Shown here: positions 19,459 through 64,000 of the stretch, piece by piece
Layout of the letters: each line of letters begins with the position of its first letter
Numbering within the stretch: position 1 is the stretch's first letter
Assembly: GCA_039024555.1 (NCBI GenBank)
Contig: JBCCQQ010000011.1
Location: 45,269 to 109,268 of the forward strand
Source of the DNA: Cyanobacteria bacterium P01_D01_bin.156
Lineage (GTDB): Bacteria; Cyanobacteriota; Cyanobacteriia; Phormidesmidales; Phormidesmidaceae
DNA: 64,000 nt
Direction of reading: 5' to 3'
Notes under the pieces: generated by a model
The model's input: the letters and a program-made list of their open reading frames with translations, nothing else
Told to the model about the DNA's origin: nothing
Databases searched by the model: none
Translations under genes and position numbers: made by a program

Positions 19459-19669
19459 TTCCTAGAAGACTGAGCCATTAATGTAGCATCCATATCCTCT
19501 GTGTTTAGAATAGACGGGCATCACTGAATGTCAGAATGATTTTAGTATTCAAATCCTGACTATTGAAAGATTTTATGGACCCGGCAAATCAGCACGGCGT
19601 AAAAGCATTCTAATCAGGAATGATTGATTTATTTTGTGAGGCATTTAATGATTCCTCTGCTTTCTGACC

Positions 19670-22657: not shown

Positions 22658-22669
22658 GGCTAGAGGAGT

Positions 22670-22741
22670 TTTATCACCAGCCCGGAGTCTTTCGTTTCTA
22701 AAGTCTACAGACAGGAGATTAATTATGTGGTGGAACACAAC
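22670..22741 (+). pseudogene. Relic of a further TIR-WD40 copy
   Basis: Translates as FITSPESFVSKVYRQEINYVVEHN versus FVISPDSIASKVCGQEIDHAVENN in the intact copies; directly follows the array's RBS spacer AGGAGTTTTATCAC. Confidence 0.8.
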
Positions 22742-22745
22742 ATTC

Positions 22746-22886
22746 TCAGTGAATTAAAGGCTGCTGACAGAATGGGTACTTTTGCAATTTGTCGTCATCT
22801 GGGCTGCCATAGGGCCTGACACACAGGACAAACGACAGAGCTGTACCCAGGCAAAGCCACAGCCCTAACCTAAATAGAGCATTCAT
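22746..22886 (-). CDS. Putative 46-aa small membrane/secreted protein
   Basis: Manual translation MNALFRLGLWLCLGTALSFVLCVRPYGSPDDDKLQKYPFCQQPLIH; hydrophobic N-half; lies downstream of the riboswitch-led ORF. Confidence 0.35.
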   Translation of the reverse strand: MNALFRLGLWLCLGTALSFVLCVRPYGSPDDDKLQKYPFCQQPLIH

Positions 22887-22994
22887 CTCACTCGATTCGT
22901 TGAGGTTGACGGTAGGTTAGTTCAAACGCGGTAATTGAACTTTAACCGCACCCATGGCGGGGGAATACTTAACAGGCATTGAACCTGTAATCAC

Positions 22995-23078
22995 CTAACA
23001 CAGAATCGGACAGAATACAATGCAGTCAATTGTCAGCACTGCAAACAGCTTGATCATGATAAAAGTTTCAGGTGTCAT
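22995..23078 (-). CDS. Putative 27-aa hydrophobic peptide led by a glutamine riboswitch (possibly a nonsense-truncated ~53-aa ORF)
   Basis: MTPETFIMIKLFAVLTIDCIVFCPILC*, preceded by AGGAGG; the frame stays open for another 25 codons after the TAG, to 22917. Confidence 0.5.
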   Translation of the reverse strand: MTPETFIMIKLFAVLTIDCIVFCPILC

Positions 23079-23113
23079 GAGAATCGCCTCCTGGAAATAT
23101 GCATTGAAACAGA

Positions 23114-23189
23114 GGCGCGTTCCTTCGGGGAAAAGACCCTACTTCCGTCTCTTGTGAGTCAGATTTTGACTCTGTAAAAGATGAACGTT
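23114..23189 (-). ncRNA. Glutamine riboswitch (glnA RNA motif)
   Basis: Minus strand reads AACGTTCATCT-[hairpin GAGTCA/TGACTC]-AGACGGAAGTAGGG-tcttttc-CCCGAAGGAACGCGCC, matching the conserved blocks of the glnA motif. Confidence 0.9.
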
Positions 23190-23199
23190 ATTTATTTCT

Positions 23200-23213
23200 G
23201 TATCCTATGTTAC
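23200..23213. promoter_or_regulatory. NtcA binding site
   Basis: GTATCCTATGTTAC fits GTA-N8-TAC and lies about 10 bp upstream of the riboswitch, a repressor-like position. Confidence 0.7.
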
Positions 23214-23410
23214 TCCTTTGCCTTTAGGTGTCAATAGGGAAACTCTGTAATGTCTAAAATTCATAACAAGACGGGTCATATGTCCTCGAAAATCGCCTGG
23301 GATAGGCAACGTATGCCCGATAAAAAACAGCTTCTGTTTTCTTGAGTAGAGAAAAATGTCAGAATAGTGCGTATGTGAAAACTGTAGCATTCTACTGCCA
23401 TTCATCGGTC

Positions 23411-26380
23411 ATGACGGACGTATTTATCTCCTACTCCCGCAAAGACAAAGCCTTTGTGCAGGTACTCAATCAGGCCCTGGCCAATAGTAAATACGATGCC
23501 TGGGTGGATTGGGAGAATATTCCCCTGACGGCGGACTGGTGGGAGGAAATTAAAGCCGGGATTGAAGGTGCGGATACGTTTATTTTTGTTATCAGTCCCG
23601 ACTCCATAGCCTCTAAGGTGTGTGGTCAAGAGATTGACCATGCGGTGGAAAACAATAAGCGATTGTTGCCGATTGTGTACCGGGAAGGGTTTGATATGTC
23701 TCGGGTACGTCCGGCCTTGGGTAAACACAACTGGCTGTTCTTTAAAGAAGAGAATGACTTTGACCAAGCATTTACTTCGCTGGTGGATGCCCTCAATACG
23801 GATCTATTCCATGTGAAGACCCACACACGATTGCTGGTTAAAGCTCAGGAATGGGATAAAAAGCACCGTCGGAATGATCTGTTGCTGCGGGGGGATGAGT
23901 TCGTCATTTCTGAAAACTGGCTAGTGGAAGCCCTTGACCAACAAAAGGAGCCGCTGCCAGCCACACTCCATAAAGAGTATATCCAGGCGGGACGAGAAGC
24001 TCAAGAACGGGAGGTTAAGCAAGAGAAGCGACGGATTTTGATTCTCAGGTCGCTCCTGGCCATCATGAGTTTTGCCTTTTTAGGCGCTGCCGGTCTTGGA
24101 GCCCATGCGTATAACCTGTGGCGAAAGGGAGAAATTGCTCAAATCACTAACCTGGCAGAAAAGTCCAACGCAGAGTTTTTGGCAGGACGAAATACCAATG
24201 CGTTGATTACAGCACTGGAAGCAGGTCATAAGTGGCAGCAATATCCGGGTAGCGATCGCAACCTCGTTCATCAAGTATTGTCGCAGTCCGTTAGCGGCAT
24301 CCGCGAAATCAAAACATTAGAAGGCCATGATGGTGTTGTTCGTGAGATAGCCATTAGCCCTGATGGCCAGATAATTGCTTCTGGTTCACAAGACGGAAAA
24401 ATTAAACTTTGGAACCTGCAAGGTCAACTGTTGCATACAATTGCAGCTCATGAAGATGATGGTCTATGGCTTAGCTTTAGTCCTGATGGCGAAATTTTGA
24501 CGTCTGTCAGTGAAGATCACACAGCGAAACTTTGGAATCTTCAAGGGCAATTATTACATACGCTTTCAGGCCATCAGGATACAGTACACGATCTTATCTT
24601 TAGTCTAGATGGTCAAACAATCATAACCGCCAGTCATGATACTACACTCAAGCTGTGGAACCGAGAAGGAAAGTTGCTAAACACCCTTAACGATCATAAC
24701 GATATTGTTTGGCGTGTTGTTCTTAGTCCAGATGGCCAAACTTTAGTGTCCCATAGCGAAGATAAGACTCTTAAGCTATGGAATTTGCAAGGAGACTTGC
24801 TTCACACGTTAGACGCTCATACTGATGTTCCCTGGAGTGAGGCGTTTAGCCCAGATGGAGAACTGCTGGCATCGAGCGGGGCTGATAATACTGTTAGGCT
24901 TTGGAATCGTGATGGTGAATTACTGAAAACCTTGACTGGTCATGAAGATACCGTTTTTGAAGTGGTCTTTAGCCCTGATGGGCAGACAATAGCCTCAGCC
25001 AGTCGAGATACAACCATTAAACTGTGGACCCGAGAAGGACAGCTCATTACGACGCTCAATGGACATACCAGTGCTGTTAATTGGATCAGGTTTAGTTCTG
25101 ATGGTCAAACGTTGGCTTCTTCGAGTAATGACAACACGATTAAACAGTGGAGCCTGGATGGCACACTTCTACAAACATTAACAGGTCACCAGGCTTGGGT
25201 AGGTGATTTGCTATTTAGCAAAGATGGACAAACCCTGATATCTGCCAGTGGCGATCAAACAGTCAAGTTTTGGCAACTTGAAGGAAACGTTTCCAAGTCT
25301 CTTCGGGGGCATACAAGTTTCGTTCGCAAGGTTCGATACAGCCCTGATGGTCAAACTCTGGTGACTGGCAGCTCCGACGGCACCCTAAAATTCTGGACTC
25401 CCGATGGAGCGCTAATCCGCACTGTGAAGGCGCACAAAGATGAAGTCCAGGATGTTGCCTTTAGCCCAGACGGAGAAATCATCACGTCGATTAGTCGTGA
25501 GGGAATTACCGCTAAACTCTGGAATTCTCAAGGAGAGCTATTGCATGTTCTAGAAGGTCATGAAGGCAAAGGCTCTTGGACGATCTTTAGCCCAGATGGG
25601 CAGACCATCGCCTCAGCCAGCGGCAATGTCGTCAGACTCTGGAACTTAAACGGTGAACTTCTGCATACTCTAAAGGACCATACGGAAAAAATTAGATACA
25701 TTGCCTTTAGCCCGAATGGCAAAATCCTGGCATCTACGAGCGACGACGGCACGCTCAAGCTATGGAACCTGCAAGGCGAGCTGCTACGAACCCTGGGTAA
25801 TGGAGAAAAACGCTATTTTGAAGTCACGTTTAGCCCAGACGGCAACTACCTTGTTGCGGCTAACGGTGATCATACCCTACAACTCTGGAACGCTAGCGGA
25901 GACTTACTCCATACCTTAGAAGGCCATACGGATGAGGTCATTCGAGTTCTCTTTAGCCGCGATGGTAAAACGATTATCTCAGGAAGTGATGATGGTACTG
26001 TCAGATTTTGGAATTTAGAAGGGAAAAACTTAAAGACTTTCCAGGGCCACGAAGGTGCAATTTGGACTATGGCGATGAGTCCAGACGGTCAAACATTTGC
26101 GACTGGTGGTAACGATGGAACTATCGCACTCTGGTCAATTGAAGGAAAATTAATACAAATCCTGGAGGGACATAAAGACTGGATGATACATCTAGAGTTT
26201 AGCCCTGATGGCAAAACCCTCGCTTCCAGTAGCGCCGACGAAACCGCTATGTTGTGGGACCTAGAAGCGCTAGAGTTTGATGCGCTGATGCAACGAGGCT
26301 GTGAGTGGTGGCGCGAGTACACCGAGTATCAAGACATCCCACCTGACCAACAAGCTATCTGTGGTGAAGTTGAAGGCTAG
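23411..26380 (+). CDS. TIR-TM-WD40 repeat protein, copy 2
   Basis: Same architecture as copy 1; start moved to the ATG at 23411 (MTDVFISYSR) by homology with the paralogs. Confidence 0.92.
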   Translation: MTDVFISYSRKDKAFVQVLNQALANSKYDAWVDWENIPLTADWWEEIKAGIEGADTFIFVISPDSIASKVCGQEIDHAVENNKRLLPIVYREGFDMSRVRPALGKHNWLFFKEENDFDQAFTSLVDALNTDLFHVKTHTRLLVKAQEWDKKHRRNDLLLRGDEFVISENWLVEALDQQKEPLPATLHKEYIQAGREAQEREVKQEKRRILILRSLLAIMSFAFLGAAGLGAHAYNLWRKGEIAQITNLAEKSNAEFLAGRNTNALITALEAGHKWQQYPGSDRNLVHQVLSQSVSGIREIKTLEGHDGVVREIAISPDGQIIASGSQDGKIKLWNLQGQLLHTIAAHEDDGLWLSFSPDGEILTSVSEDHTAKLWNLQGQLLHTLSGHQDTVHDLIFSLDGQTIITASHDTTLKLWNREGKLLNTLNDHNDIVWRVVLSPDGQTLVSHSEDKTLKLWNLQGDLLHTLDAHTDVPWSEAFSPDGELLASSGADNTVRLWNRDGELLKTLTGHEDTVFEVVFSPDGQTIASASRDTTIKLWTREGQLITTLNGHTSAVNWIRFSSDGQTLASSSNDNTIKQWSLDGTLLQTLTGHQAWVGDLLFSKDGQTLISASGDQTVKFWQLEGNVSKSLRGHTSFVRKVRYSPDGQTLVTGSSDGTLKFWTPDGALIRTVKAHKDEVQDVAFSPDGEIITSISREGITAKLWNSQGELLHVLEGHEGKGSWTIFSPDGQTIASASGNVVRLWNLNGELLHTLKDHTEKIRYIAFSPNGKILASTSDDGTLKLWNLQGELLRTLGNGEKRYFEVTFSPDGNYLVAANGDHTLQLWNASGDLLHTLEGHTDEVIRVLFSRDGKTIISGSDDGTVRFWNLEGKNLKTFQGHEGAIWTMAMSPDGQTFATGGNDGTIALWSIEGKLIQILEGHKDWMIHLEFSPDGKTLASSSADETAMLWDLEALEFDALMQRGCEWWREYTEYQDIPPDQQAICGEVEG

Positions 26381-26395
26381 AGGAGTTTTATCACG

Positions 26396-29377
26396 ATGAC
26401 CGATGTATTTATTTCATATTCTCGCAAAGATAAAGCCTTTGTTCAAGTGCTCAACCAGGCCCTGGCGGATAGCAAATACGATGCCTGGGTGGATTGGGAA
26501 AATATTCCTCTGACAGCGGACTGGTGGGAGGAAATCAAAGCAGGGATTGAAGGGGCGGATACGTTTATCTTTGTCATCAGTCCCGACTCTATTGCGTCTA
26601 AGGTGTGTGGTCAAGAGATTGACCATGCGGTAGAAAACAATAAGCGACTGTTGCCGATTGTGTACCGGGACGGGTTTGATATGGACCTGGTACGTCCAGC
26701 ATTAGGTAAACATAACTGGCTGTTCTTTAAAGAAGAGAATGATTTTGATCCAGCATTCGCTTCTCTCGTGGAAACGCTGAATACAGATCTGTCCCATGTG
26801 AAGACCCACACACGATTGCTAGTTAAAGCTCAGGAATGGGATAAGAAACACCGTCGAGATGATTTGTTGCTGCGGGGTGATGAATTTGTTATTTCTGAAA
26901 ACTGGCTAGTGGAAGCCCTTGACCAACAAAAGGAACCGCTGCCAGCCACACTACATAAAGAGTATATCCAGGCCGGACGGGAAGCCCAGGAGCGAGAGGT
27001 TAAGCAAGAAAAGCGGCGGATTTTGATTCTCAGGACAATGCTTGCCATCATGAGCTTTACCGCAGTTACTGCAACGGGAGCTGGTATTTACGCCTACCAA
27101 CTGTGGCGTAATGGCGAAGTTGCCCAAATTGAGTCCTTGGCTAAGCAGTCAAACGCGGAGTTTTTGGCGGGGCAAAATACTGATGCGTTGATTACGGCGC
27201 TGAAGGCAGGACACAGGTGGGAAAAGTATCCAGAGAGCGATCGCCAACTCGTGCCTCAGGTGTTACTTCAAGCTGTAGACGGCATTCGGGTAATTAAAAC
27301 CTTAGGCGGACAAAATAACGTAATCCTCAGATTAGCCTTCAGCCCTGACGGGGAGATCATGGCTGAAGGCAGTGCCAGTGGAATCATTAACTTATGGAAT
27401 AAACAGGGAAAGTTACTCAATACTCTCACAGAGCATGAAGGCTCTATTCGAAGGCTTATTTTTAGTCCCGATGGGCAAGTTTTAGCATCTGCAAGTGGAG
27501 ATAAAACTGCTAAATTGTGGAACTTAAATGGAGAATTACTGCACACGCTTTCAGGCCACACGGACCAAGTACGGGATCTAAGATTCAGTCCTGATGGTCA
27601 AACGATTGTGACCTCAAGCCACGACAGCACCCTCAAGCTCTGGACCCGAGAGGGAAAATTGTTGAAAACACTCGATAATCATGAAGACCGAGCATGGAAT
27701 TTAGCATTGAGCCCCGATGGCACGATGATAGCTTCTCACAGCGACGACAGTACTGTAAAAATCTGGAACTTTGAAGGGGAGTTGCTTCATTCGCTACCTC
27801 ATACCCGAGTCCCTTGGCACACCACATTTAGTCCTGATAGTGAGCTTATTGCCTCAGGTGGCTATGATCAAACAGTTTCGCTCTGGAATCGCAATGGAGA
27901 ACTGCTTCATACCTTGACTGGACATGAAGGTATCGTTCGGAGAATAGCCTTCAGCCCTGACGGTCAACTATTGGCCTCAGCGAGTGCTGACAACACTATT
28001 AAATTGTGGACGAGACAAGGGCAACTTCTTAAAACGCTTACAGGACACACTCGTACTGTGAGGGGAATAAAGTTTGCGAGTGATGGCAAAATGTTTGCGT
28101 CAACTAGTGCTGACAATACCATTAAGCTATGGGCACGAGATGGCACGCTTTTACAAACTTTGACTGGACACCAAGCATGGGTAGATGCCCTTGAATTCAG
28201 CCCTAATGGGCAGATTCTTGCATCAGGCAGCGGCGACCAGACGGTAAAACTGTGGCAGATGGAAGGAACTGTTTCAACTTCTCTGCAAGGACACACCAGT
28301 TTTGTCAGAACCATTCAACACAGCCCTGATGGACAAACTTTAGTGACTGGAGGTTCTGATGGCACGTTCAAATTTTGGACAACCGAGGGAGAATTAATCC
28401 GCACTGTTGATGGTCACAAGAAAGAAAATGAAGAAGATGAAATTGAAAATGCTACCTTTAGTCCCGATGGACAAGCCATTGCGACTATCAGCCGTAATGG
28501 GGCTAACGCCAAACTCTGGACTTCAGACGGTGAACTACTGCATGTTCTGGAAGGCCATGAAGGCCAAGGTGGTCGGATAACGTTTAGTCCAGACAGTCAA
28601 ACTATTGCCTCTTCCAGTGGAAATGTTATTAGGCTATGGAACTTAGATGGTGATCTGTTACATACTCTAAACGGCCATACAGAATTCATTAGATTTATTG
28701 TCTTTAGCCCCGATGGTCAAACGCTAGCCTCTACGAGTAACGATGGCACCCTTAAGCTTTGGAACTTAAATGGTGAACACCTAAAAACCCTCGGTAATCG
28801 AGAAGAGCGATACTTGGAGATGTCGTTTAGTCCTGATGGGCAATATCTTGTGGCCGCAAATGGTGACCAAACATTACAACTGTGGAATGCTAACGGTGAC
28901 CTACTTCGTACTCTGGAAGGCCATGAAGATGAAGTGATTAGAGTTCTCTTTAGTCGTGACGGAGAAACTATCATTTCTGGTGGCGATGACGGTACTCTAC
29001 GATTCTGGAATTTAGACGGAGAACTGTTAAAGAGTATCGAAGGCCATGAGGGTCAGATTTGGCACATGGAATTGAGTCCCGACGGTCAAACTATTGCTAC
29101 AGGAAGTAGCGATCACACCATCAAGCTGTGGTCAATCGACGGAGAGCTGATACAAACTCTCGTAGGTCATAAAGGCTGGATCCTGCGTTTAGAATTTAGT
29201 CCTGATGGCAAAACTCTTGCGTCTAGCAGTGCCGATGAAACGGCAATTCTGTGGGACTTGGAATCGCTGAAATTTGATGCCCTAATGCAGCAGGGCTGTG
29301 AGTGGTGGCGCGAGTACACCAAGTACCAAGACACTCCACCCGACCAGCAAGCTATCTGTGGTGAAGTTGAAGGCTAG
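26396..29377 (+). CDS. TIR-TM-WD40 repeat protein, copy 3
   Basis: Same architecture; 15-bp spacer with AGGAG RBS after copy 2. Confidence 0.92.
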   Translation: MTDVFISYSRKDKAFVQVLNQALADSKYDAWVDWENIPLTADWWEEIKAGIEGADTFIFVISPDSIASKVCGQEIDHAVENNKRLLPIVYRDGFDMDLVRPALGKHNWLFFKEENDFDPAFASLVETLNTDLSHVKTHTRLLVKAQEWDKKHRRDDLLLRGDEFVISENWLVEALDQQKEPLPATLHKEYIQAGREAQEREVKQEKRRILILRTMLAIMSFTAVTATGAGIYAYQLWRNGEVAQIESLAKQSNAEFLAGQNTDALITALKAGHRWEKYPESDRQLVPQVLLQAVDGIRVIKTLGGQNNVILRLAFSPDGEIMAEGSASGIINLWNKQGKLLNTLTEHEGSIRRLIFSPDGQVLASASGDKTAKLWNLNGELLHTLSGHTDQVRDLRFSPDGQTIVTSSHDSTLKLWTREGKLLKTLDNHEDRAWNLALSPDGTMIASHSDDSTVKIWNFEGELLHSLPHTRVPWHTTFSPDSELIASGGYDQTVSLWNRNGELLHTLTGHEGIVRRIAFSPDGQLLASASADNTIKLWTRQGQLLKTLTGHTRTVRGIKFASDGKMFASTSADNTIKLWARDGTLLQTLTGHQAWVDALEFSPNGQILASGSGDQTVKLWQMEGTVSTSLQGHTSFVRTIQHSPDGQTLVTGGSDGTFKFWTTEGELIRTVDGHKKENEEDEIENATFSPDGQAIATISRNGANAKLWTSDGELLHVLEGHEGQGGRITFSPDSQTIASSSGNVIRLWNLDGDLLHTLNGHTEFIRFIVFSPDGQTLASTSNDGTLKLWNLNGEHLKTLGNREERYLEMSFSPDGQYLVAANGDQTLQLWNANGDLLRTLEGHEDEVIRVLFSRDGETIISGGDDGTLRFWNLDGELLKSIEGHEGQIWHMELSPDGQTIATGSSDHTIKLWSIDGELIQTLVGHKGWILRLEFSPDGKTLASSSADETAILWDLESLKFDALMQQGCEWWREYTKYQDTPPDQQAICGEVEG

Positions 29378-29392
29378 AGGAGTTTTATCACG

Positions 29393-32371
29393 ATGACAGA
29401 CGTATTTATTTCCTACTCCCGCAAAGACAAAGCCTTTGTTCAGGTGCTCAACCAGGCACTAGCCGATAGCAAATACGATGCCTGGGTGGATTGGGAGAAT
29501 ATTCCCCTCACTGCTGACTGGTGGGAAGAGATTAAAGCGGGGATCGAAGGGGCGGATACGTTTATCTTTGTCATCAGCCCGGACTCGATTGCGTCTAAGG
29601 TATGTGGTCAGGAGATTGACCATGCAGTAGAAAACAATAAGCGGTTGTTGCCGATTGTGTACCGAGAAGGGTTTGATATGTCCTTGGTGCGCCCGGCTTT
29701 GGGTAAACACAACTGGCTGTTCTTCAAAGAAGAGAATGACTTTGACCCAGCATTTGCATCGCTGGTGGATGCCCTCAATACGGATCTATCCCATGTGAAG
29801 ACCCACACACGCTTACTGGTTAAAGCTCAAGAATGGGATAAAAAGCACCGACGGGATGATTTGTTGCTACGGGGTGATGAGTTTATCATTTCCGAAAACT
29901 GGCTAGTGGAAGCCCTTGATCAACACAAGGAACCACTGCCAGCCACACTACACAAAGAGTATATCCAGGCGGGACGGGAGGCTCAGGAACGGGAGGTTAA
30001 ACAAGAGAAGCGACGGATTTTGATCCTTAGGTCGCTAGTCGCCATTCTGAGTCTTGCCTTTGTAGGGGCTGCTGGTCTTGGTGCTCATGCTTATAATTTA
30101 TGGCGTAAAGGAGAAGTTGAACAGATTGAGTCTCTGGCAAAACAGTCTAATGCTGAATTTTTAGCAGGACGAAATACCGATGCGTTGATTACGGCTCTAG
30201 AAGCAGGGCATCAATGGCAAAAATATCCAGGTAGCGATCGCATCTTCGTTCATCAAGTCTTGGCACAAGCCGTCAACGGCATTCGCGAAATCAAAACCTT
30301 AGGTGACAACTATGATGTTATTTGGGACATTGCTGTTAGCCTCGACGGTAGCATCATTGCCTCTGGCGGCCACGTCGGAGAAATGAAACTCTGGAGCCGG
30401 GAAGGGAAGTTGCTCCATACCGTCTCGGCCCATGAAAAGGGGATTCGTCAATTGGCTTTTAGCCCCGATGGCGAGATATTAGCGTCGGCGAGTGATGACC
30501 AGACGGCTAAGCTTTGGAACCTTCAGGGTGAGCCCCTAAAGACGCTCTCAGGTCATGAGGATAATGTTGAAGGTTTGGGATTCAGTCCCGATGGTCAAAC
30601 CCTGGTGACATCTAGCAAGGATGCCACGCTTAAGCTCTGGAATCGAAACGGTGAGCTGTTGCAGACCTTGAACGATCATAAAGGCCCCGCTTGGGATCTG
30701 GTCTTCAGCTCCGATGGTCAGATATTTGCATCCCATAGCGATGACGACACCGTGAAGCTTTGGAATTGGGAAGGAGAAGTCCTCCGAACCCTCTATGAAC
30801 CTAACGCTGATCCCTGGAGCAAAGCCTTTAGCCCAGATGGAGAACTGATCGCGACTGGTGGAGCCGATAAAACCATTAGACTATGGAATCTTGATGGCGA
30901 GCTATTACACACCCTGACAGGCCATGAAGATACTGTACGCCAGGTCGTTTTCAGTCCAGATGGACAGTTGCTCGCCTCGGCGAGCTACGACAACACAATT
31001 AAACTCTGGAACCGAGAAGGAGAGATCATTAAAACCTTGGCAGGGCATACTCAAAATGTCAACTGGATGCAGTTTAGTCAGGATGGCCAAACCTTCGTCA
31101 CCTCTAGTAGCGACGGCACGATCAAGCAGTGGAGGTTAGATGGAGCTTTACTGCAAACATTGACGGGACATACAAGTTGGGTCGGAGATGTTGTTTGGAG
31201 TCCAGATGGTCAAACGGTAATATCTGGCAGCGGCGACCGAACCGTTAAGCTTTGGCAATTGACAGGCAATACCTCAACCACGCTGAAAGGCCACAATTCA
31301 TGGGTCAGCGCCGCTCAATATACTCCTGACGGTCAGATGCTGATCACAGGAGAAGGGTATGGCCCACTGAAATTTTGGACTGCCGACGGCGAGCTGATTC
31401 GCACGGTTGATGGACATAGTTATGATGATGGACTCGGTGCCTTTGCCGTGAGTCCAGACGGTCAATTCATTGCTTCCATCAGCAATAATGGGCCAGTTGC
31501 CATCCTCTGGAATGCCCAAGGGGAAATACTACACACGCTCGAAGTCGAAGACGGATCTAAACCACGGGTAAGGTTTAGCCCTGATGGAGAAATCCTGCTT
31601 ACCGCCCGGGGTGGTGTTATCCACCTCTGGAATTTGGACGGAGAGCTCTTGCACACGCTGACTAGCGATACAGAGTCCATTCAAGACATCACCTTCAGTC
31701 CTGACAGTCAAATCCTGGTATCGACTAACAGTAATGGCCCCCTCAACATTTGGAGTGTTGAGGGTGAATTGCTAAATAGTTTAGGCGATCGGGAAGAACC
31801 TTATTATGCAGTAACCTTTAGCCCCGATGGACAGTATCTGGTGGCGGGCAGCAAGGACAACACAGTGCAACTTTGGACTGCCAACGGCGAGTTGCTACAC
31901 ATGCTCGAAGGCCACACCGATGCAATAAACGATGTTCTCTTTAGTCACGACGGTCAAACGATCATCTCTGCCAGCGAAGATGGCAACATCAAATTTTGGA
32001 GCCTAGAAGGTGAGCTAGTGAATTCAGCCAAGGCCGAGGAAGCAGAAATTTGGGAAGGAATATGGGATATTGCTTTGAGCCCTGACGGAGAGACGTTAGC
32101 GACCGCTGGAGACTATATCGTTAAGCTCTGGTCGATGAATGGCGAGCTTTTACAGACCTTAGTCGGTCACATTGGCTCGGTAAGGGATCTAGAATTCAGC
32201 CCCGACGGCAAAACCCTCGTCTCCAGTAGCGCTGATGAGACCGCTATTGTGTGGAATTTAGAAGCGCTGGAGTTTGATGCCCTGATGCAGCGAGGCTGTG
32301 AGTGGTTCAAAAACTACGAGGCCAACAAAACAGACGAAGACAAACATGAGTCTCTCTCCCTTTGCAATTAG
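29393..32371 (+). CDS. TIR-TM-WD40 repeat protein, copy 4
   Basis: Same architecture; identical 15-bp spacer; distinct C-terminal tail. Confidence 0.92.
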   Translation: MTDVFISYSRKDKAFVQVLNQALADSKYDAWVDWENIPLTADWWEEIKAGIEGADTFIFVISPDSIASKVCGQEIDHAVENNKRLLPIVYREGFDMSLVRPALGKHNWLFFKEENDFDPAFASLVDALNTDLSHVKTHTRLLVKAQEWDKKHRRDDLLLRGDEFIISENWLVEALDQHKEPLPATLHKEYIQAGREAQEREVKQEKRRILILRSLVAILSLAFVGAAGLGAHAYNLWRKGEVEQIESLAKQSNAEFLAGRNTDALITALEAGHQWQKYPGSDRIFVHQVLAQAVNGIREIKTLGDNYDVIWDIAVSLDGSIIASGGHVGEMKLWSREGKLLHTVSAHEKGIRQLAFSPDGEILASASDDQTAKLWNLQGEPLKTLSGHEDNVEGLGFSPDGQTLVTSSKDATLKLWNRNGELLQTLNDHKGPAWDLVFSSDGQIFASHSDDDTVKLWNWEGEVLRTLYEPNADPWSKAFSPDGELIATGGADKTIRLWNLDGELLHTLTGHEDTVRQVVFSPDGQLLASASYDNTIKLWNREGEIIKTLAGHTQNVNWMQFSQDGQTFVTSSSDGTIKQWRLDGALLQTLTGHTSWVGDVVWSPDGQTVISGSGDRTVKLWQLTGNTSTTLKGHNSWVSAAQYTPDGQMLITGEGYGPLKFWTADGELIRTVDGHSYDDGLGAFAVSPDGQFIASISNNGPVAILWNAQGEILHTLEVEDGSKPRVRFSPDGEILLTARGGVIHLWNLDGELLHTLTSDTESIQDITFSPDSQILVSTNSNGPLNIWSVEGELLNSLGDREEPYYAVTFSPDGQYLVAGSKDNTVQLWTANGELLHMLEGHTDAINDVLFSHDGQTIISASEDGNIKFWSLEGELVNSAKAEEAEIWEGIWDIALSPDGETLATAGDYIVKLWSMNGELLQTLVGHIGSVRDLEFSPDGKTLVSSSADETAIVWNLEALEFDALMQRGCEWFKNYEANKTDEDKHESLSLCN

Positions 32372-37340: not shown

Positions 37341-37445
37341 GGGTTCTCCTTAGTAAGGGGAATCGTCAAGGAGGGGGAATCGATGATTAGCACAGACGAC
37401 AAAGACCCCTCCGCCTACGGCACCTCCCCTTACCAAGGGGAGGAC
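37341..37445. repeat. Palindromic dispersed repeat / MITE-like element, copy B
   Basis: The left part is the reverse complement of 34860-34895 with mismatches; 37402-37431 is identical to 44078-44107. Confidence 0.75.
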
Positions 37446-37491
37446 GTTGCAGAACATAATCCTTGCTTTTTGTTTTTCGCTTTCTAAAACT

Positions 37492-39557: not shown

Positions 39558-39681
39558 GTAGGGGTGGTGCCTCGTGCCCACCCTGCGACATTGGGCGGTA
39601 CCAACCGAGATTTGATTTATACGCGGTTAGCAAAATGATCATCTGTAGGTATTGAGGGCACCCACGAGGGGATGCCCCTAC
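39558..39681. repeat. REP/REPIN-like element (two inverted GTAG-hairpin units)
   Basis: GTAGGGGTGGTGCCTCGTGCCCACCC at the left and, on the minus strand, GTAGGGGCATCCCCTCGTGGGTGCCC at the right. Confidence 0.75.
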
Positions 39682-40271
39682 GGGTTTTCTCTAAATGCCC
39701 TAAACGCAACAGCAATTCGTCTACCCTGCAATTTCGCAGATTTCGGTACCTCATGGGTCCATGCCAAATTTGTCCCATAGGGCATTACAAAAACAGTGCC
39801 ATGGTCTGCCGGAAAATCTTGATATCCCTTTCTTTGCCAGGGACGCAACCGAAACACCCTAGACTGCCCCAACGACAAAGTAACAATGGGTGCGCCGTCG
39901 AGCATATTCTGGGTACTGTCGCGGTGTTTGCCGATGTAGTGGCCCAGTTTGCCGTCGTACCAGGTTAGTAAGATGCCATTAAGGCGGGCATCGATGGTGG
40001 TTTTGGCCCAGTGCCAGATGGGGTGAATCTGGTCGGGAACGGGCAAGGCGGAGTTGGTGGCACCGGAGTAGCTATAGGCTTTATTGTAGGCTTGTTCCCA
40101 GCGTGGGGTGGCGACGGTGCGACCGTGGATTTTGATGGTGTTGTAGTTTGGTGGATGGAGTGCCCAGAGGGTTTCGAACTGTTGGATAGTGGGTAAAAGG
40201 GCATCTGGCAGGCTGCCCTGCCAGAGATGGTGGTGAGGATCTAAAGAATGGCGTTGAAATTCGGGATACAT
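39678..40271 (-). CDS. AlkB-like 2OG-Fe(II) dioxygenase
   Basis: TPRWEQAY..Y.YSG, H-x-D (KHRD), LSLG..R.F, distal His (THEVP) and R-x5-R (RRIAVAFR). Confidence 0.88.
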   Translation of the reverse strand: MYPEFQRHSLDPHHHLWQGSLPDALLPTIQQFETLWALHPPNYNTIKIHGRTVATPRWEQAYNKAYSYSGATNSALPVPDQIHPIWHWAKTTIDARLNGILLTWYDGKLGHYIGKHRDSTQNMLDGAPIVTLSLGQSRVFRLRPWQRKGYQDFPADHGTVFVMPYGTNLAWTHEVPKSAKLQGRRIAVAFRAFRENP

Positions 40272-40438: not shown

Positions 40439-43120
40439 TCAGCCAATCTGTTCTTCTAACTCCGCAATCTCTCCATTTCGCCGATGATATCCAACAATCT
40501 CCCCTTCCTTAAACAAGCCAATGTACTCCGGGGGCTCCCATTCATCCCTTGTAGACACATAGGGTATATAAGGCTGCTCTGTTTTTTTAACCAAAGCTTT
40601 TGCCTCGTCAAGTTTAATGCGAGCTTGGGCCTTATCGTCCAGAATCAGCGCTAAGCGACAGCGCTCAAGAGCCGCTTCGATTTGAAAGATAACCATATTG
40701 CTGCGACCTGAAATTTGTTCAATTTCAGTAAGATCGCGTTCGGCTTGTTCCAAATAATCTTTTTTTCCTAATTGTGCGCTTACTCTCCATAATACTGAGC
40801 GCGACAATAAACTTATAGAAGTGTACTGTTGAGTCCCTGATTGACGAAGTAAGATAACACTTTTATCAAGATATTCTGTGGCTTTTTTAAGGGTATCTGT
40901 ATGAATTGATTTGCTGTCACTAAATCCAAATGTCTTTCGCATTTTAATTATTACTTCCAACAACCAATTATTGCCTAGTGTTAAATTGCTGAGTCCCATA
41001 TGGTATATGGATTTCTTTTGGTCAGAAATTTCAAATGAAAGTTTTGCTAATTTACGAACTTTCTGGCAACGAGACAAAGCTATATTAATTCTATTATGCT
41101 TTGATTTCGTTTTATTTTTAAGAATAGCTCTTGAAATTTTTTCCATTAAAAAATCATAGTAATAGAACCCCTGTAATGAATAGAGAAATGGGGTTTTTGG
41201 TTGATATTTAATTTGTCTTTTTTCTGCATCCTTAAAGACTTCCAAAGCCTCATCATATCGAGCAGCCTGATGAAGAGTCTGAGCAAACCTAACTCTTCCA
41301 AATATTTGTTTAGCTGAATTATGACTACAATCAGCTAGTTCCATACATTGTTCAGCCACTTGCACAGCACTGGCTATATTTCCTTGCGACCAGTACAATC
41401 CACTAAGGTTGTTCGAACCTTGAGCTGCATTTCTAATATCCCCTAACAATATTCTGGCTTCTATACCACGCTGTATTGGTTCTGTTGCTTCTGCCAAATG
41501 GCCTAAAGTTTGCAAGCAAAAACCAGCTTCATCAAGAAGCCAAGCATGATCTTCGGCAGTCAATCCAGGCACGGTTGAGTGCCAAGATTTCTCAAAAAAC
41601 ATATTGACTAGAACTAACTGATTACTAACTGCTCCAAGAGTAAAAATAGAGAAGTGCAAGTTATCGCGCCGAATACGTTTTCTGAATATATGATCGTAAG
41701 CTTGTTTGTGTAAGTTAGCTTTGCAGCCATGGACTACAGCATGATACAGCGGCATCATTTCTTTTAGCGTATCTGGTAGTTCTGGAGTTGCTTTTTTTAG
41801 ATGTTCATAAATACGAGAATGTGCTTTTTGAGTTTCACTTTTGTAATGAGTAGAAAGTTGGGTAGAAAAGTACTCACGAATAAGTGGATGAGCATCCAAA
41901 AAAAGTGGAATTTCAGCTTGTTTATTTATTCTACTAGAGTAGCTATCTGTACTCAATAAACCATACTCTATTAGGTTGGAGATAGCCCAATTCCATTCCT
42001 CAGACTTGAGCCCTACTAGAATGTCAGTAAGCCCGGAAATAGCTGGAGCTACGCATACTGCTTCCAGACAATCTACTTCGGCAGGACGATCAAAAAGGCC
42101 CAATAATCTTAAAATTGATAGCTCTGGGCCTTCGCCTAACCATATCTCGTATTTTTCCACTAATTTACGAGCATGACCACCTTGTAACTGATCTACCTGT
42201 GTCAAATCCAATTCTCTGATGCGACGAACATCACCATAACAAGCTTTTCGTAAATAATTGCCTAGTAGCCTTAGCGCTAGTCCATGCCCATGTACCTGTT
42301 TTGAAGCCTCTTCTAATTCCTGTGGGAGTCCTTTGACTCCTAATGCCTTTAACAATACAGCTCCTGTTTTCTCTGATAATGTCTCTAACTCAATCTCTTG
42401 AGCTGTAGGAATATCAGGGACAGAATATCGAGTTGTAATGATACATAGTCCTGAGTTGTCTGCTGCTAATTCTCGTACCAGAGCCTTTAGACCTTGATCC
42501 TTAATTCGGCCTGTTTCAGCTACCGCTGTTGCCCCCCATTGCAATGGTTCCATTCCGTCTAGAATCAATAAAGTCTTATGATGCCGTACTAACCTTGCCA
42601 AGCGTTCGCCTTTATCCCAGGTAGAACCCATTTCTGGACTGAGATCACCAAAAAATTGCAAAGCTCTATCAATAAACACATCTGCTGATGAGTGAGTATC
42701 ATCTTGCGAACCTTGGCTGTAAAACGAATGACCTAAGACGTACTGAGCACCACGCCAATCATCACGCTGAAGACTTTCAAGCCATGCAGCTACCAATGAG
42801 CTTTTGCCAACACCTCCAAAGGCCACAAGGCTTATCAACGTAGTATTTGGATCATCCCAAGCTCTATCAAGTTGTTCTAGTTCCTTTTCTCGACCAACAA
42901 AATGTGAAACAGCAGGCGGTAAATGGGCAATAGAAATAACAGGAGCATTTTTATTGAGATTTGATTGCAATGGCTTTGACAGCTCAGCGATTTTGGTATG
43001 ACATTCAGTAATTTTCTGATGCAGTTCGAACTTTTGAGCCGCATCAGCTGCAATAGCTTCCTGAGCTTGCAAATACTCAAGCTTCTTTTGCCAGACCTCA
43101 AGAGCTTGTTGACTTGCCAT
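40439..43120 (-). CDS. STAND-class NTPase with N-terminal ~45-aa helical adaptor domain and C-terminal TPR-like repeats
   Basis: FVGREKEL, Walker A GGVGKS, Walker B LLILDGME, sensor ITTR, GHGLAL, HPLIREY, followed by helical repeats; visibly AT-richer than the flanking genes. Confidence 0.85.
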   Translation of the reverse strand: MASQQALEVWQKKLEYLQAQEAIAADAAQKFELHQKITECHTKIAELSKPLQSNLNKNAPVISIAHLPPAVSHFVGREKELEQLDRAWDDPNTTLISLVAFGGVGKSSLVAAWLESLQRDDWRGAQYVLGHSFYSQGSQDDTHSSADVFIDRALQFFGDLSPEMGSTWDKGERLARLVRHHKTLLILDGMEPLQWGATAVAETGRIKDQGLKALVRELAADNSGLCIITTRYSVPDIPTAQEIELETLSEKTGAVLLKALGVKGLPQELEEASKQVHGHGLALRLLGNYLRKACYGDVRRIRELDLTQVDQLQGGHARKLVEKYEIWLGEGPELSILRLLGLFDRPAEVDCLEAVCVAPAISGLTDILVGLKSEEWNWAISNLIEYGLLSTDSYSSRINKQAEIPLFLDAHPLIREYFSTQLSTHYKSETQKAHSRIYEHLKKATPELPDTLKEMMPLYHAVVHGCKANLHKQAYDHIFRKRIRRDNLHFSIFTLGAVSNQLVLVNMFFEKSWHSTVPGLTAEDHAWLLDEAGFCLQTLGHLAEATEPIQRGIEARILLGDIRNAAQGSNNLSGLYWSQGNIASAVQVAEQCMELADCSHNSAKQIFGRVRFAQTLHQAARYDEALEVFKDAEKRQIKYQPKTPFLYSLQGFYYYDFLMEKISRAILKNKTKSKHNRINIALSRCQKVRKLAKLSFEISDQKKSIYHMGLSNLTLGNNWLLEVIIKMRKTFGFSDSKSIHTDTLKKATEYLDKSVILLRQSGTQQYTSISLLSRSVLWRVSAQLGKKDYLEQAERDLTEIEQISGRSNMVIFQIEAALERCRLALILDDKAQARIKLDEAKALVKKTEQPYIPYVSTRDEWEPPEYIGLFKEGEIVGYHRRNGEIAELEEQIG

Positions 43121-43192
43121 ACTTCTTCTTCATCCCATTACCTGCAAGCACCATATACCTATCTATTTGATTAACCTCCATCCTGACTCGAT

Positions 43193-43849
43193 TCATTCAC
43201 TCAGTTCACGATTTTTTTGCTGAGCCTCTTCAATCTGTTTTTTCAGTGCAAACTTCTGACTAGGATCAACTGTAATCGCTTCCTGCTCTTGCAAAAACGC
43301 TAGCTTCTCTTGCCAAATAGCCACCGCGTCACTGCAGGCCAGTGACGCGGTGGCTGATTGTGGGGCAACCGCTGCCGACTGAGAAGCTATAGCTTTCGAC
43401 AAGGGTGGATGATGGGAAGCCACCCGAAGCGCTCGAATCAGTTTTTGAAAAACGACGTCTCGCCGGTCATCTGGAAATAGATCTACAAATTGAAGCCGAT
43501 CCAACGTACGAATACCATCGATCTCGATCATCGGAATCTCACACTCCGATAACCGCACCGGAATCAAAAAAATATCACCAGGCGGATAATCCCGTAGCAT
43601 ATTGATCGCATCCAACGCCTCTGGATAAATCCCAGATGTAGTCCGGGCTGACGTTTCTTTTGATAAACAGAGTAAGACCGCATAGGCATCCCGCATCGCC
43701 TTACGAATTTCTAGCTTCCAATCCTGCCCCGGCAGAATATCTTGATCCCACCAGACTGATTCGCCTGCAGCGGTCAGCTCACCATGGAGACGGCCTACCT
43801 CATCAGCATTGTCTCGACAGTAGGAGAGAAAAACATGCTTCTTAGCCAT
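43193..43849 (-). CDS. TIR-domain protein with C-terminal ~45-aa helical adaptor domain
   Basis: HVFLSY, VWWDQDILPGQDW..EI..A, LLCLS, IYPE, IPVRL..C.IP, Ala/Ser linker, then the domain shared with the next gene. Confidence 0.88.
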   Translation of the reverse strand: MAKKHVFLSYCRDNADEVGRLHGELTAAGESVWWDQDILPGQDWKLEIRKAMRDAYAVLLCLSKETSARTTSGIYPEALDAINMLRDYPPGDIFLIPVRLSECEIPMIEIDGIRTLDRLQFVDLFPDDRRDVVFQKLIRALRVASHHPPLSKAIASQSAAVAPQSATASLACSDAVAIWQEKLAFLQEQEAITVDPSQKFALKKQIEEAQQKNRELSE

Positions 43850-43983
43850 CAACTTTCAGGGGGCACAATTTACCAGCTACTCCCAGTTTGCGCGGGGATT
43901 CTTGGAGTGTCAAGGTATGTAGTTACATTGATATTTAAGTTTTGTAGCCATTCGAATTTAGGCCGCTGCATCGCTCTTTTTTG

Positions 43984-44121
43984 CGACGGTTCCCCTAAAG
44001 CCCTGCGGGCATGGGCTAAAGCCTAAGGCAAGGGAAACCAACGGAGGGGTCTCCTCAATCGCTAGCGCCAAATACCGAAGACCCCTCCGCCTACGGCACC
44101 TCCCCTTGGTAAGGGGAGGAA
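43984..44121. repeat. Palindromic dispersed repeat / MITE-like element, copy C
   Basis: Shares ACCAACGGAGGGGT and GACGGTTCCCCT with copy A and a 30-bp identity with copy B. Confidence 0.75.
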
Positions 44122-44215
44122 GTTCTACAACATTTCTTTCGCAGGAAAACTAACCTTTCTCAGGAACTCTGCAAGTACTCACCAACCCCTGATAGCATCA
44201 GAAAAAACCTTCCCC

Positions 44216-61761: not shown

Positions 61762-64000
61762 TTAGAGCAGTGGTTTGATATAAGCCCCCCACTCGGGAAT
61801 AAACTGTCCACCTGTAAGGTTTTTACTACTGATGTCAGTAGGCTTACCAGTTTTTGTCAAGGAACCATCCAGGTCAATCAATACACCAGGATCAGAGACA
61901 GGTTTACGCTCATCCTTGGCCCAATAGACGCTATTGTCCGTATTAATTAGTTTAGAACCTGTGATGGTAGAGTCTGGGCGAAATCCGGTTTGCTTATGAA
62001 CTGCGATCGCATTACCAAAGTTCTCAAAGGTGACATTACTGATATTAGGACTCACGCCATATGGACTACGTTTGACGTGGATACCACCGGGAATAGCTCC
62101 ACCACCTGACAAAAACTGACGGGTTTGTCCCAAAACTCCCCCAATCTTATTGGCAGAATTTTGAGTCATCGCCACATCATCAATGGTTGAGCGCATAGTG
62201 ACAATTCCAGAGGAACTATCAGCGATCACAGCGTTTTGCAATACATGTCGATCATCTTCTATCCACACACCAGAAACATTATTCTTGTAAGTGGTGAAAT
62301 CCTTAAAGACAATATCAGAGCCAGGCTCCTTATCGTAGCTATTGACCAGCAAGCCATGTCCTCGAGTCAAGGGACCATAGTGAGGGTTGGTTGCATTTTC
62401 AGTCATCATATTGCTATGGGACAAGTTGTCTTCAAAAACAATTTGATCAGTCCGATTAATGATCCCCTTTTTAGTACCGTGACTCAACAAGGCCGCATCA
62501 TAGAAGAAACCATTCCCCTCTACGGCTCCCGCTGCATGGTTGCCTATTAGAGGGTTGTAATAATTACGTCCCCAGAAAACGCTAGAACGGTTTTCTGCTT
62601 GACTTGAACGAAAATGCATATCGACGGGGAAAGAAAAATCACTTTCCTCTCGACTTTTCACCAACAATCCCAAGTTATTGGTGAAAGTATTGCCAACCTC
62701 ATTTCCATCTTCAGAAAAGGTGTACGCATGCCCAAACACGTTGTATACAACATTAGAGTCAACCTCTACATTGTCAACACCATGAGTAACAATACCACGC
62801 TGGAAACTATCGTAGATTGAGCTGTTCTTAATGTAATCTCCTTCACTATCCCCCCCAAGGTGCCAGTGGATAGGATAGCGACCTTTGTTGCCAAGCTGTC
62901 CAGCTTGACTAATTTCCACACCTGATAGTTGTATTGAGGAGCCTTGCATAAACATCATATGAGCACCAAACTCAGTCTCTACAGAATCCTCTGCTCCTTG
63001 GATATCAATATTGCGACTAAGCAAACCAACTTCTGCTCTCATATCTAGAGGCTTACCATCGATCGTCTCAATTTTGCCATAGTGATCATAGTTCAGCGCC
63101 CGATCTAGAGTGACCTGATTACCACTAACAGCAACAACTGTACGCTTTTCAGCTTCGTTAGCTTCAAAACCGCTGGGAGCAATAACAATTTCGTCACCAA
63201 CTTCCCAGTCAACAGATTGAGAGAGGGTAATCACATTTTCACCTTTATCAGCATGGGCTGAAAGCTGGGTCCAGGAGACCTTTTCCCCATCTACACCGTG
63301 CATACTGATAGTACTTTCAGTTCCATCATCAGCTGTACCAGCAGCAATGATAAATCGTCCACCCATACCCATACCCATGACATCTTCATCAACACCATCT
63401 AAAGTGATGTTTGTTTCAGAGTCATAGGGATTATCCTGTGTACCAACTTCTAGATATCCCCCTTTCCTGACCAATAGCCAGTCCGCTGTAAAGTCCAGCT
63501 CACCATTGCCATTAGTATCAGTAAAGTTTTCGGAAAAAATCAACTCACCTTCAACGATTACGCCAGCAAGATTAGCGGTGTCTTGGTCAAGAAGGACGGT
63601 CTCGCCTTTAGCAATAACAACTTGTTCTCCTGCAGTGGGACTCAATTGAGACCATAGTGTAATTCCGTCCGTAGGTTCACCACCGCCAGTAGGATCGCCG
63701 CCACCACTGGAGTCATCGCCGCCAGTGGGGTCATTACCGTCAGTGGGGTCATTGCTGCCGCCACCGTCAGTAGGATTGCCACCGTCAGTAGGATCGCCAC
63801 CGTCAGTAGGATTGCCACCGTCAGTAGGATTGCCGCCGTCATCAGTGGAGTCGCCTGGAGTGAAGGTAATCGACTTGAGATTAAAGTCCGAATTATTCTT
63901 AACTTCTTCCAGACCACTACCATTACCGTATGCGGTCGCTTCAATTGTTAACTTGTAAAACTCACTAGACGAATCTAGATTAAACAAATAGCTATTTCTA
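61762..64000 (-). CDS. Large surface/secreted protein with G8 domain and parallel beta-helix repeats (3' part; continues beyond the window)
   Basis: The frame is open to the window edge. G8-like region (VVIAKGETVLLD...GELIF...GGYLEVGT), AEVGLLSRNI, GRYPIHWH and beta-helix repeats. Confidence 0.82.
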   Translation of the reverse strand, partial: RNSYLFNLDSSSEFYKLTIEATAYGNGSGLEEVKNNSDFNLKSITFTPGDSTDDGGNPTDGGNPTDGGDPTDGGNPTDGGGSNDPTDGNDPTGGDDSSGGGDPTGGGEPTDGITLWSQLSPTAGEQVVIAKGETVLLDQDTANLAGVIVEGELIFSENFTDTNGNGELDFTADWLLVRKGGYLEVGTQDNPYDSETNITLDGVDEDVMGMGMGGRFIIAAGTADDGTESTISMHGVDGEKVSWTQLSAHADKGENVITLSQSVDWEVGDEIVIAPSGFEANEAEKRTVVAVSGNQVTLDRALNYDHYGKIETIDGKPLDMRAEVGLLSRNIDIQGAEDSVETEFGAHMMFMQGSSIQLSGVEISQAGQLGNKGRYPIHWHLGGDSEGDYIKNSSIYDSFQRGIVTHGVDNVEVDSNVVYNVFGHAYTFSEDGNEVGNTFTNNLGLLVKSREESDFSFPVDMHFRSSQAENRSSVFWGRNYYNPLIGNHAAGAVEGNGFFYDAALLSHGTKKGIINRTDQIVFEDNLSHSNMMTENATNPHYGPLTRGHGLLVNSYDKEPGSDIVFKDFTTYKNNVSGVWIEDDRHVLQNAVIADSSSGIVTMRSTIDDVAMTQNSANKIGGVLGQTRQFLSGGGAIPGGIHVKRSPYGVSPNISNVTFENFGNAIAVHKQTGFRPDSTITGSKLINTDNSVYWAKDERKPVSDPGVLIDLDGSLTKTGKPTDISSKNLTGGQFIPEWGAYIKPLL
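63668..63850 (-). repeat. In-frame 18-bp tandem repeats encoding a (TDGG[N/D]P)n linker
   Basis: Units such as CCGTCAGTAGGATTGCCA repeated with variants; the protein reads DGGNPTDGGNPTDGGDPTDGGNPT. Confidence 0.9.

Follow-up and report, generated by a model that had tools for sequence, protein, structure and literature searches.

In Avs proteins an effector or adaptor N-terminus is followed by a STAND NTPase and a C-terminal repeat sensor. The same order of parts is given for Avs and bacterial NACHT (bNACHT) proteins in the consulted portions of two reports (PMC13581612; bioRxiv 10.1101/2022.07.19.500537), and those of the second list effector-associated domains (EADs) among the 'adaptor' N-termini of bacterial NACHT proteins. 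The EAD principle, for which our sources are Kaur, Burroughs, Iyer and Aravind (eLife 2020, PMC7159879; eLife 2021, PMC8195603; each consulted in part), is that a small helical terminal domain occurs on a core NTPase and also on the effector encoded by an adjacent gene, while other genomes encode that effector in direct fusion with the core (PMC7159879). Here we describe such a pair of adjacent genes, one for a TIR protein and one for a STAND-TPR protein, in a 64,000-nucleotide stretch (hereafter the window) of contig JBCCQQ010000011.1 (positions 45,269 to 109,268) from Cyanobacteria bacterium P01_D01_bin.156. In its architecture and in the logic of its coupling, the pair is quite probably the split, two-gene counterpart of an NLR/Apaf-1-type receptor that is widespread as a single TIR-STAND-TPR chain, its halves joined through a small helical hairpin carried by each.

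The pair fits the published, computationally defined EAD principle. It shares with the EAD systems a non-catalytic helical terminal domain on the NTPase and on the adjacent-gene effector, direct fusions elsewhere, an effector repertoire of TIR, caspase/CHAT, PNPase, trypsin and phosphoesterase domains, and occurrence in filamentous cyanobacteria. It differs from them in its core, which is a plain two-gene STAND-TPR arrangement of AP-ATPase/NB-ARC-like type and not a MoxR-vWA or GTPase ternary system, in its genome, which holds a single pair rather than many copies, and in that adjacent copies of this kind are not each other's closest relatives. EAD9, the published domain that the hairpin resembles, is listed among the EADs that mainly recruit signalling components (PMC7159879), whereas the hairpin described here mostly carries effectors. 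With Avs and bNACHT proteins the pair has in common the logic of an N-terminal effector or adaptor, a STAND NTPase and a C-terminal repeat sensor, but its STAND protein has no PADLOC match and Avs3 is merely the 46th of its fold matches. The consulted portions of the literature on Avs/bNACHT STAND defence yielded no test of an EAD-coupled pair.

Experimental precedent for bacterial Death-fold adaptors comes from CARD-gasdermin (10.1101/2023.05.28.542683) and LypABC (PMC13236601), going by the available portions of those reports. The CARD-coupled systems, Apaf-1/caspase-9 and MyD88 resemble our pair in that sensor and effector are joined in trans by one small helical adaptor; the CARD-coupled systems have six-helix Death-fold adaptors and protease effectors, whereas the pair has a two-helix hairpin and a putative TIR enzyme. 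Bacterial NLR-like sensors that recruit separate killing enzymes through homotypic adaptors would mirror the Apaf-1/caspase-9 and MyD88 wiring, which for EADs is a computational prediction. Homotypic interaction of EAD copies is also a prediction in the consulted parts of the source papers (PMC7159879; PMC8195603), and among the listed titles and abstract openings of the 'effector-associated domain' literature from 2021 onward none disclosed a test of EAD binding. The kind of system is thus already known computationally, and the main value of the locus lies in a natural pair of forms: the same TIR and STAND are found both as a hairpin-free fusion and as separate proteins that bear hairpins, which makes for an unusually clean natural control. 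Because both forms of the same proteins exist, the EAD principle is directly testable at this locus.

Domain anatomy of the two proteins

Both open reading frames (ORFs) are on the minus strand in the same orientation and together cover 40439-43852; the ORF list gives the TIR gene as 43193..43852, from a TTG at 43852 that lies one codon upstream of the ATG adopted here. The parts of the pair are as follows.

43193..43849, minus strand: TIR-hairpin effector gene, 218 residues from the ATG at 43849, start set by homologues
43406..43849, minus strand: TIR domain, residues 1-148 (Pfam TIR_2; AlphaFold2 predicted local distance difference test, pLDDT, ~80-94)
43619..43621, minus strand: codon of the conserved Glu in GIYPE (E77 from the ATG, E78 in the numbering of the ORF list)
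43334..43405, minus strand: low-complexity linker, residues 149-172 (pLDDT <50 for 152-172)
43196..43333, minus strand: C-terminal EAD9-like hairpin of the TIR protein, residues 173-218 (BLASTP, profile, AlphaFold2)
43121..43192, minus strand: 72-bp intergenic spacer between the TIR and STAND genes (ORF list, site scans)
40439..43120, minus strand: hairpin-STAND-TPR sensor gene, 893 residues, downstream of the TIR gene
42974..43111, minus strand: N-terminal EAD9-like hairpin of the STAND protein, residues 4-49 (BLASTP, profile, model)
41891..42940, minus strand: STAND NTPase module with helical and winged-helix parts, residues ~61-410
42800-42817, minus strand: Walker A, GGVGKS, invariant in 38 aligned homologues
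42548-42571, minus strand: Walker B, LLILDGME (LLILDGxEP invariant in 38 aligned homologues)
40583..41887, minus strand: TPR-like alpha-solenoid, presumed sensor, residues 412-846
40442..40582, minus strand: conserved C-terminal cap, WEPPEY...GYHRRN..., 72-88% identical to relatives

The original prediction, made from the DNA letters, had described two co-oriented genes 72 bp apart, the second with Walker A and B motifs and TPR-like repeats, and all of this was confirmed by the ORFs, the invariant motifs and Pfam TPR matches at residues 568-634. AAA_16 is the sole family above its cut-off among the NTPase models of Pfam (33.4 bits; cut-off 32.6), with NB-ARC falling short at 20.7 vs 23.5 bits and nSTAND1 and NACHT likewise sub-threshold. 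The structure model of the STAND protein (pLDDT 87.1, predicted template modelling score 0.80, 38-row alignment) consists of a P-loop domain and helical modules to residue ~410, the NTPase module ending with a DAHPLIR motif, then the solenoid (412-846) and the small cap. Among solved structures it comes closest to the Pyrococcus STAND-TPR protein 6mfv, Apaf-1, MalT, CED-4 and plant NB-ARCs of the NRC/ZAR1 type; by sequence, its only PDB matches were designed TPRs and AfsR, at E>=0.002. The family is single-copy in its own genome.

The presumed sensor is the most divergent part of the protein. Over nucleotides 40871-41773 (residues ~450-750) identity to the closest relatives is 24-46%, compared with 68-80% in the NTPase and 72-88% in the cap, while two relatives compared with each other over the same stretch are 50-78% identical. 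This stretch is also the most AT-rich part, with GC down to 0.31. The alignment suggests that the ligand-binding part of the STAND protein has been replaced or is diversifying fast.

The TIR assignment is secure in Pfam (TIR_2 at residues 7-138, E 2e-19, 70.5 bits vs a cut-off of 28), and in the AlphaFold2 model of the protein (mean pLDDT 82.6, 41-row alignment) the nearest solved folds found by Foldseek are those of SPARTA TIR-APAZ, Hydra TRR-2, SARM1, PdTIR and AbTir, at probability 1.00 for SPARTA TIR-APAZ, SARM1 and AbTir. When the PDB was searched by sequence, no match to the single TIR sequence was significant (best E 0.11), and a TIR profile matched PdTIR and AbTir over no more than their first ~65 residues (E 0.001-0.03). 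The Glu of GIYPE, noted at the outset, is conserved in 120 of the 120 best TIR homologues and pairs, in a weak profile alignment (E 0.43), with the W-x-x-E Glu of a TIR-STING chain; it is a candidate for the catalytic glutamate of TIRs, which belongs to the helix following the third strand. The TIRs of SPARTA and SARM1 are NADases upon oligomerisation, and our TIR would likewise cleave NAD+. The proposal of a MyD88-like wiring is supported as a coupling of sensor to effector, all the comparative checks suggested with it having turned out in favour, but the TIR is more likely an enzymatic effector than a passive MyD88-type adaptor.

Fused and split relatives

With STAND residues 60-893 as the query, 2225 of 8000 scored proteins matched at E<=1e-5, and the architectures of the best 120 were counted. 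The same chain contains TIR_2 in 65 of them, and CHAT, PNP_UDP_1, Mrr_cat, SEFIR, DUF676 or EAD7 occur in others. By a local profile search, five of the 120 have a TIR of the type found in the window (P0275, P0296, P0286, P0297 and P0291); an N-terminal hairpin is present in six, our own protein counted. In P0275 (1027 residues), residues 1-167 correspond to residues 2-169 of our TIR protein (67% identical) and residues 177-1027 to residues 62-893 of our STAND protein (57% identical), so that ~9 linker residues and no hairpin stand where the window has hairpin, stop codon, 72 bp, start codon and hairpin. The fused proteins P0275, P0296 and P0286, which databases name merely 'TIR domain-containing protein', are collinear with the pair over its whole length and have the same Walker motifs and C-terminal cap, but each is a single chain with a short linker and no hairpin; in the window there are two chains, and both of the new ends bear a hairpin. 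Since these close homologues of both proteins are fused without a hairpin, the hairpin pair, as judged from the alignments, occupies the exact place of the covalent linker. One assembly encodes both the fused P0296 and a split pair (L008).

Split pairs orthologous to ours are found in three further genomes (L005, L006 and L008); the STAND gene of L008 is broken into two ORFs. A fourth genome, at L007 (2659-3977), has at the same junction as the window pair a decayed pair in which the TIR is cut into pieces of 129 and 81 aa, the 81-aa piece with the hairpin, and in which a hairpin-bearing head of 114 aa and a tail of 111 aa are what is left of the STAND protein. Beyond these orthologues, a gene with a C-terminal hairpin is directly followed by one with an N-terminal hairpin in 9 of 21 metagenome loci, and the predicted recurrence of the facing arrangement is therewith upheld. 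The nine include TIR followed by a NACHT/AAA_16 STAND (L099), TIR followed by an AAA_16 STAND (L102), TIR followed by NB-ARC (L105) and CHAT followed by nSTAND1 (L098). The others are SEFIR-TIR followed by GT2-WD40 (L096, L097), SEFIR-TIR followed by TIR-Metallophos (L092), a fragment followed by FGE-sulfatase (L093), and a pair unknown on both sides (L103). At L096 (2595-5295) and L097 (1921-4582) the SEFIR/TIR-hairpin gene precedes one for a hairpin, a GT2 glycosyltransferase and a WD40 propeller, and because these downstream genes have no recognisable NTPase, the hairpin appears to couple effectors to non-STAND partners as well. Among cyanobacterial loci, L081 has a small protein and an NB-ARC protein with the module N-terminal in both, L086 a hairpin-CHAT-STAND protein and L087 a CHAT-hairpin protein.

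In seven of the 120 STAND homologues (P0363, P0340, P0309, P0331, P0304, P0357 and P0319) a hairpin is found at the extreme C-terminus of a fused TIR-STAND-TPR protein; these presumably recruit further, separately encoded partners.

The hairpin module and its proposed docking

The hairpins of the two proteins are homologous. BLASTP aligned TIR residues 171-219 with NTPase residues 1-49 without gaps, 23/49 identical (E 4e-5 in a single comparison), in agreement with the ungapped segment of ~45 residues first noted (22/45), whose coordinates were correct. In the models it is a simple, amphipathic helix-turn-helix of 46 residues, set off by disordered linkers in both proteins, with helices 171-192 and 196-217 (pLDDT ~90) after the disordered 152-172 in the TIR protein and helices 2-23 and 27-48 before a disordered stretch (51-56) in the STAND protein. 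A word-indexed search with STAND residues 1-60 returned only our own protein because the domain is too short for word indexing. A hairpin profile (A1) built from 13 segments was therefore the more telling probe: against 1.84 billion protein cluster representatives it matched 904 at E<=1e-3 and 384 at E<=1e-10. The similarity of the TIR and STAND hairpins goes beyond chance.

The module is portable and prefers the ends of proteins. Among the best 150 of the 904 it is C-terminal in 101, N-terminal in 27 (128 together) and internal in 15, and 7 proteins are little more than the domain, which, if counted, bring terminal placement to 135. A Pfam scan of 84 carriers showed the swapped effectors that had been anticipated, with TIR_2 in 31, PNP_UDP_1 in 7, CHAT in 5, Trypsin_2 in 3, EAD1 in 3, FGE-sulfatase in 2, and Metallophos, an alpha/beta-hydrolase, a ricin-type lectin and a cNMP-binding domain in one each; SEFIR is added by the metagenome pairs. 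The cores are swapped too (NACHT, NB-ARC with EAD8, AAA_16 and AAA_35), and 25 of the 84 carriers have no Pfam match. Small two-headed proteins combine EAD1 with the hairpin (L111 3698-4144, P0195, P0210, P0236, L106 1105-1962), one protein of this set being hairpin-EAD1-nSTAND1; it is possible that they bridge two adaptor networks.

A simple amphipathic helix-turn-helix could also be a coiled-coil module for self-association, through which each protein forms homo-oligomers and the TIR does not dock on the STAND protein. The two or three hairpin copies in 7 of the 150 best family members, the C-terminal hairpins of the seven fused proteins named above and the lack of partner-specific similarity described below would all agree with this. 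The fused orthologues argue the other way: they consist of the same TIR and STAND wholly without the hairpin, and because of them the hairpin must be unnecessary for self-assembly of either part. Moreover, the hairpin sits exactly at the chain break, on both new ends, its carriers face each other in the 9 of 21 metagenome loci, and a search of our own genome (6.6 Mb, 99% complete) at E<=1 found exactly two copies, both on these neighbouring genes. We regard pure self-association as quite improbable, and prefer docking of the two hairpins on each other.

Several results nevertheless weigh against this preferred reading. Hairpins of partner proteins do not resemble each other more than those of non-partners do: for seven independent pairs the mean identity is 51.7% vs 49.5%, 856 of 5040 permutations reach the observed partner identity, and the true partner heads the ranking in 2 of the 7. 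Left out of this set were L005-L008, L097 and L105, as kin of pairs that were kept, and L103, which has a truncated upstream hairpin. The pairs thereby depart from what has been published for EADs, namely that copies in adjacent genes should be closer to each other than to copies elsewhere (PMC7159879). The hairpin is rare in cyanobacteria, with matches at E<=1e-4 in 9 of the 401 genomes sampled, our own included; several copies occur in some (four on four contigs in G196, three in G044, two in G392). At L089 the gene after a TIR-hairpin gene encodes an NB-ARC-TPR protein with no detectable hairpin, so that neighbouring genes need not form a hairpin pair. The Pfam EAD9 model (PF19962, 62 positions, gathering cut-off 25 bits) finds nothing at E<=10 in either of our hairpins scanned alone. 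Lastly, a check for a catalogued defence system came back negative: in PADLOC-DB 2.0.0 the STAND protein matches 0 families and the TIR protein has weak, partial matches only (best E 7.7e-9, spanning 107 of 430 profile positions), and for this reason a defence role is argued by analogy.

Two of these points call for comment. As to specificity, none would be needed in our own genome, because it holds a single pair. A complex prediction with hairpins of 54 residues each scored 0.01 vs a mark of 0.32 and, having been run without controls, is not taken as evidence on binding in either direction. Specificity may reside in a few positions, or else the module may be a generic connector. Carried further, the second option would make the EAD9-like hairpin a generic, largely sequence-unspecific plug, by which any tagged effector (TIR, caspase-like, phosphorylase and phosphoesterase being the candidates) docks on any tagged sensor. 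We offer this tentatively, as less likely than not. If true, it would explain both the missing covariation of partners and the two-headed EAD1-plus-hairpin proteins, it would make a covalent linker and a hairpin pair functionally interchangeable, and by simple shuffling of genes bacteria could detach, re-fuse and exchange the effectors of their NLR-like receptors.

As to EAD9, the resemblance first proposed survives in a weakened form. EAD9 is the one recurrent weak match among the relatives of the hairpin: it appears in 11 of 64 short relatives at a sub-threshold E of 0.0024-0.69, profile positions ~19-57 lying in every case on the hairpin itself, and in one of the 84 relatives in the same register, again sub-threshold (P0162, E 9.7e-4). 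P0237 has a cut-off-passing EAD9 at 175-232, adjoining its hairpin at 261-304. In all, EAD9 reaches E<=0.001 in only 2 of 148 relatives, below the cut-off in one and on a separate neighbouring segment in the other. A search of our own genome with EAD9 gave 8 sub-threshold matches at noise level, neither hairpin of the pair among them, and such noise-level matching was also seen in 10 of 14 control genomes. Among 301 sampled cyanobacterial genomes, 25 have EAD9 at E<=1e-3, 14 of them over the cut-off, and in three genomes (G119, G050 and G032) the EAD9 and hairpin profiles match the same segments. Profile-profile comparison of A1 with 16 cut-off-passing EAD9 segments by hhalign gave 94.6% probability (E 7e-8), falling to 12% (E 0.0024) in an unchanged register when three intermediate-looking segments (L058-L060) were removed.

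EAD9 and the hairpin are alike in being all-alpha, ~45-60 residues long, terminal and placed on facing ends of adjacent genes (for EAD9, G152:C13 has two matches 36 nt apart), and the hairpin is in register with EAD9 profile positions ~19-57, but it is without the first ~18. By these comparisons it is a divergent, shortened EAD9-like branch, tied to core EAD9 only via intermediates, and we do not count it among the members of Pfam EAD9. We call it EAD9-like because the hhalign link depends on those intermediate sequences.

In the docking model, the hairpins of the TIR and STAND proteins would bind each other in place of the covalent linker of the fused relatives. A ligand derived from an invader would be bound by the TPR solenoid, upon which the NTPase would exchange its nucleotide and oligomerise, bringing the docked TIR domains together. 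The clustered TIRs would then act on NAD+, by depleting it or possibly by making a signal nucleotide, and the infected cell would be arrested or die. Such an anti-phage or cell-death role is proposed by analogy. Depletion of NAD+ as the end point is less certain than the coupling.

The other end point would be Thoeris-like, with the STAND-activated TIR producing a signalling nucleotide for an effector encoded elsewhere instead of depleting NAD+. Synthesis of signal nucleotides is known for bacterial TIRs, and our TIR shows a weak likeness to ThsB-type proteins in PADLOC and NCBIfam. This version is nonetheless unlikely, given that no candidate receptor-effector is conserved beside the pair, whose neighbours differ across L005, L006, L008 and the window, that the TIR is, besides the NTPase, the only enzymatic domain in the fused relatives, and that the hairpin also carries directly destructive effectors (CHAT, trypsin, phosphoesterase).

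Genomic setting

The genes around the pair were identified with NCBIfam as a nit1C set, comprising the Nit6803 nitrilase, MSMEG_0568 radical SAM, MSMEG_0567 GNAT, sll0787 AIR-synthase-like, MSMEG_0565 glycosyltransferase and MSMEG_0570 genes, and the prediction that the pair interrupts a nit1C cluster was therefore right. Together with one further gene, the pair separates the MSMEG_0565 glycosyltransferase gene from the AIR-synthase-like gene of sll0787 type:

39678-40271, minus strand: AlkB-type 2-oxoglutarate (2OG)-Fe(II) oxygenase gene (PF13532, E 6e-15), between the STAND and AIR-synthase-like genes

The oxygenase was considered as a third component and rejected. Because L005, L006 and L008 have no copy of it, it is left out of the system; it is probably a separate insertion.

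The position of the pair could mean that it has no immune role, being either a regulator tied to the nit1C nitrile/nitrogen-starvation cluster or an inert remnant of gene fission. It is indeed inside nit1C in the window, the same junction holds the pair in L006 and its remnant in L007, and L007 shows that such pairs decay. But the pairs of L005 and L008 are at other sites, and the stretches analysed there contain no nit1C genes, the hairpin is absent from two other genomes of the same family, both ORFs in the window are intact with invariant catalytic motifs, and the domain partners of the hairpin are typical of conflict systems. We therefore consider the absence of an immune role highly improbable. 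Apart from the fused/split comparison, the locus is an ordinary accessory insert of defence type in a metabolic operon.

Evidence for mobility comes from the differing contexts of the pair in L005 and L008 and from the composition of the STAND gene, which, as noted at the outset, is AT-richer than its surroundings (40.2% GC vs 47-54% in neighbours, and 38.2% in its TPR half). Direct or inverted repeats flanking the insert, as marks of a mobile element, were sought and none was convincing. The pair had also been placed 'between repeat elements', and two copies of a repeat do occur in the window:

44078-44133 and 37402-37457: ~50-nt palindromic intergenic repeat

The repeat has 43 matches genome-wide, several at contig ends, and none at the other boundary of the insert, which is thus not bracketed by it. 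The copies are real, but the repeat is probably a small dispersed one at which the assembly breaks up. In the 72-bp spacer no terminator-like site was found, and the scans for promoters (10 promoter-like sites vs 7.3 expected) and terminators (3 vs 5.4 expected) were at chance level. Among sequencing runs listed as containing the stretch there is no RNA run; the single one listed is a DNA run, which may be the source sample and carries no information on expression.

Elsewhere in the window, 19660-32310 is occupied by four tandem paralogous units of ~3-3.7 kb each, with 300-nt blocks 82-89% identical, that are packed with 123-nt, 41-residue repeats of WD40 type; these may be another family of repeat sensors. 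Near the window end, 63660-63848 is an array of 18-nt (36-nt) tandem repeats, GCCACCGTCAGTAGGAT-like.

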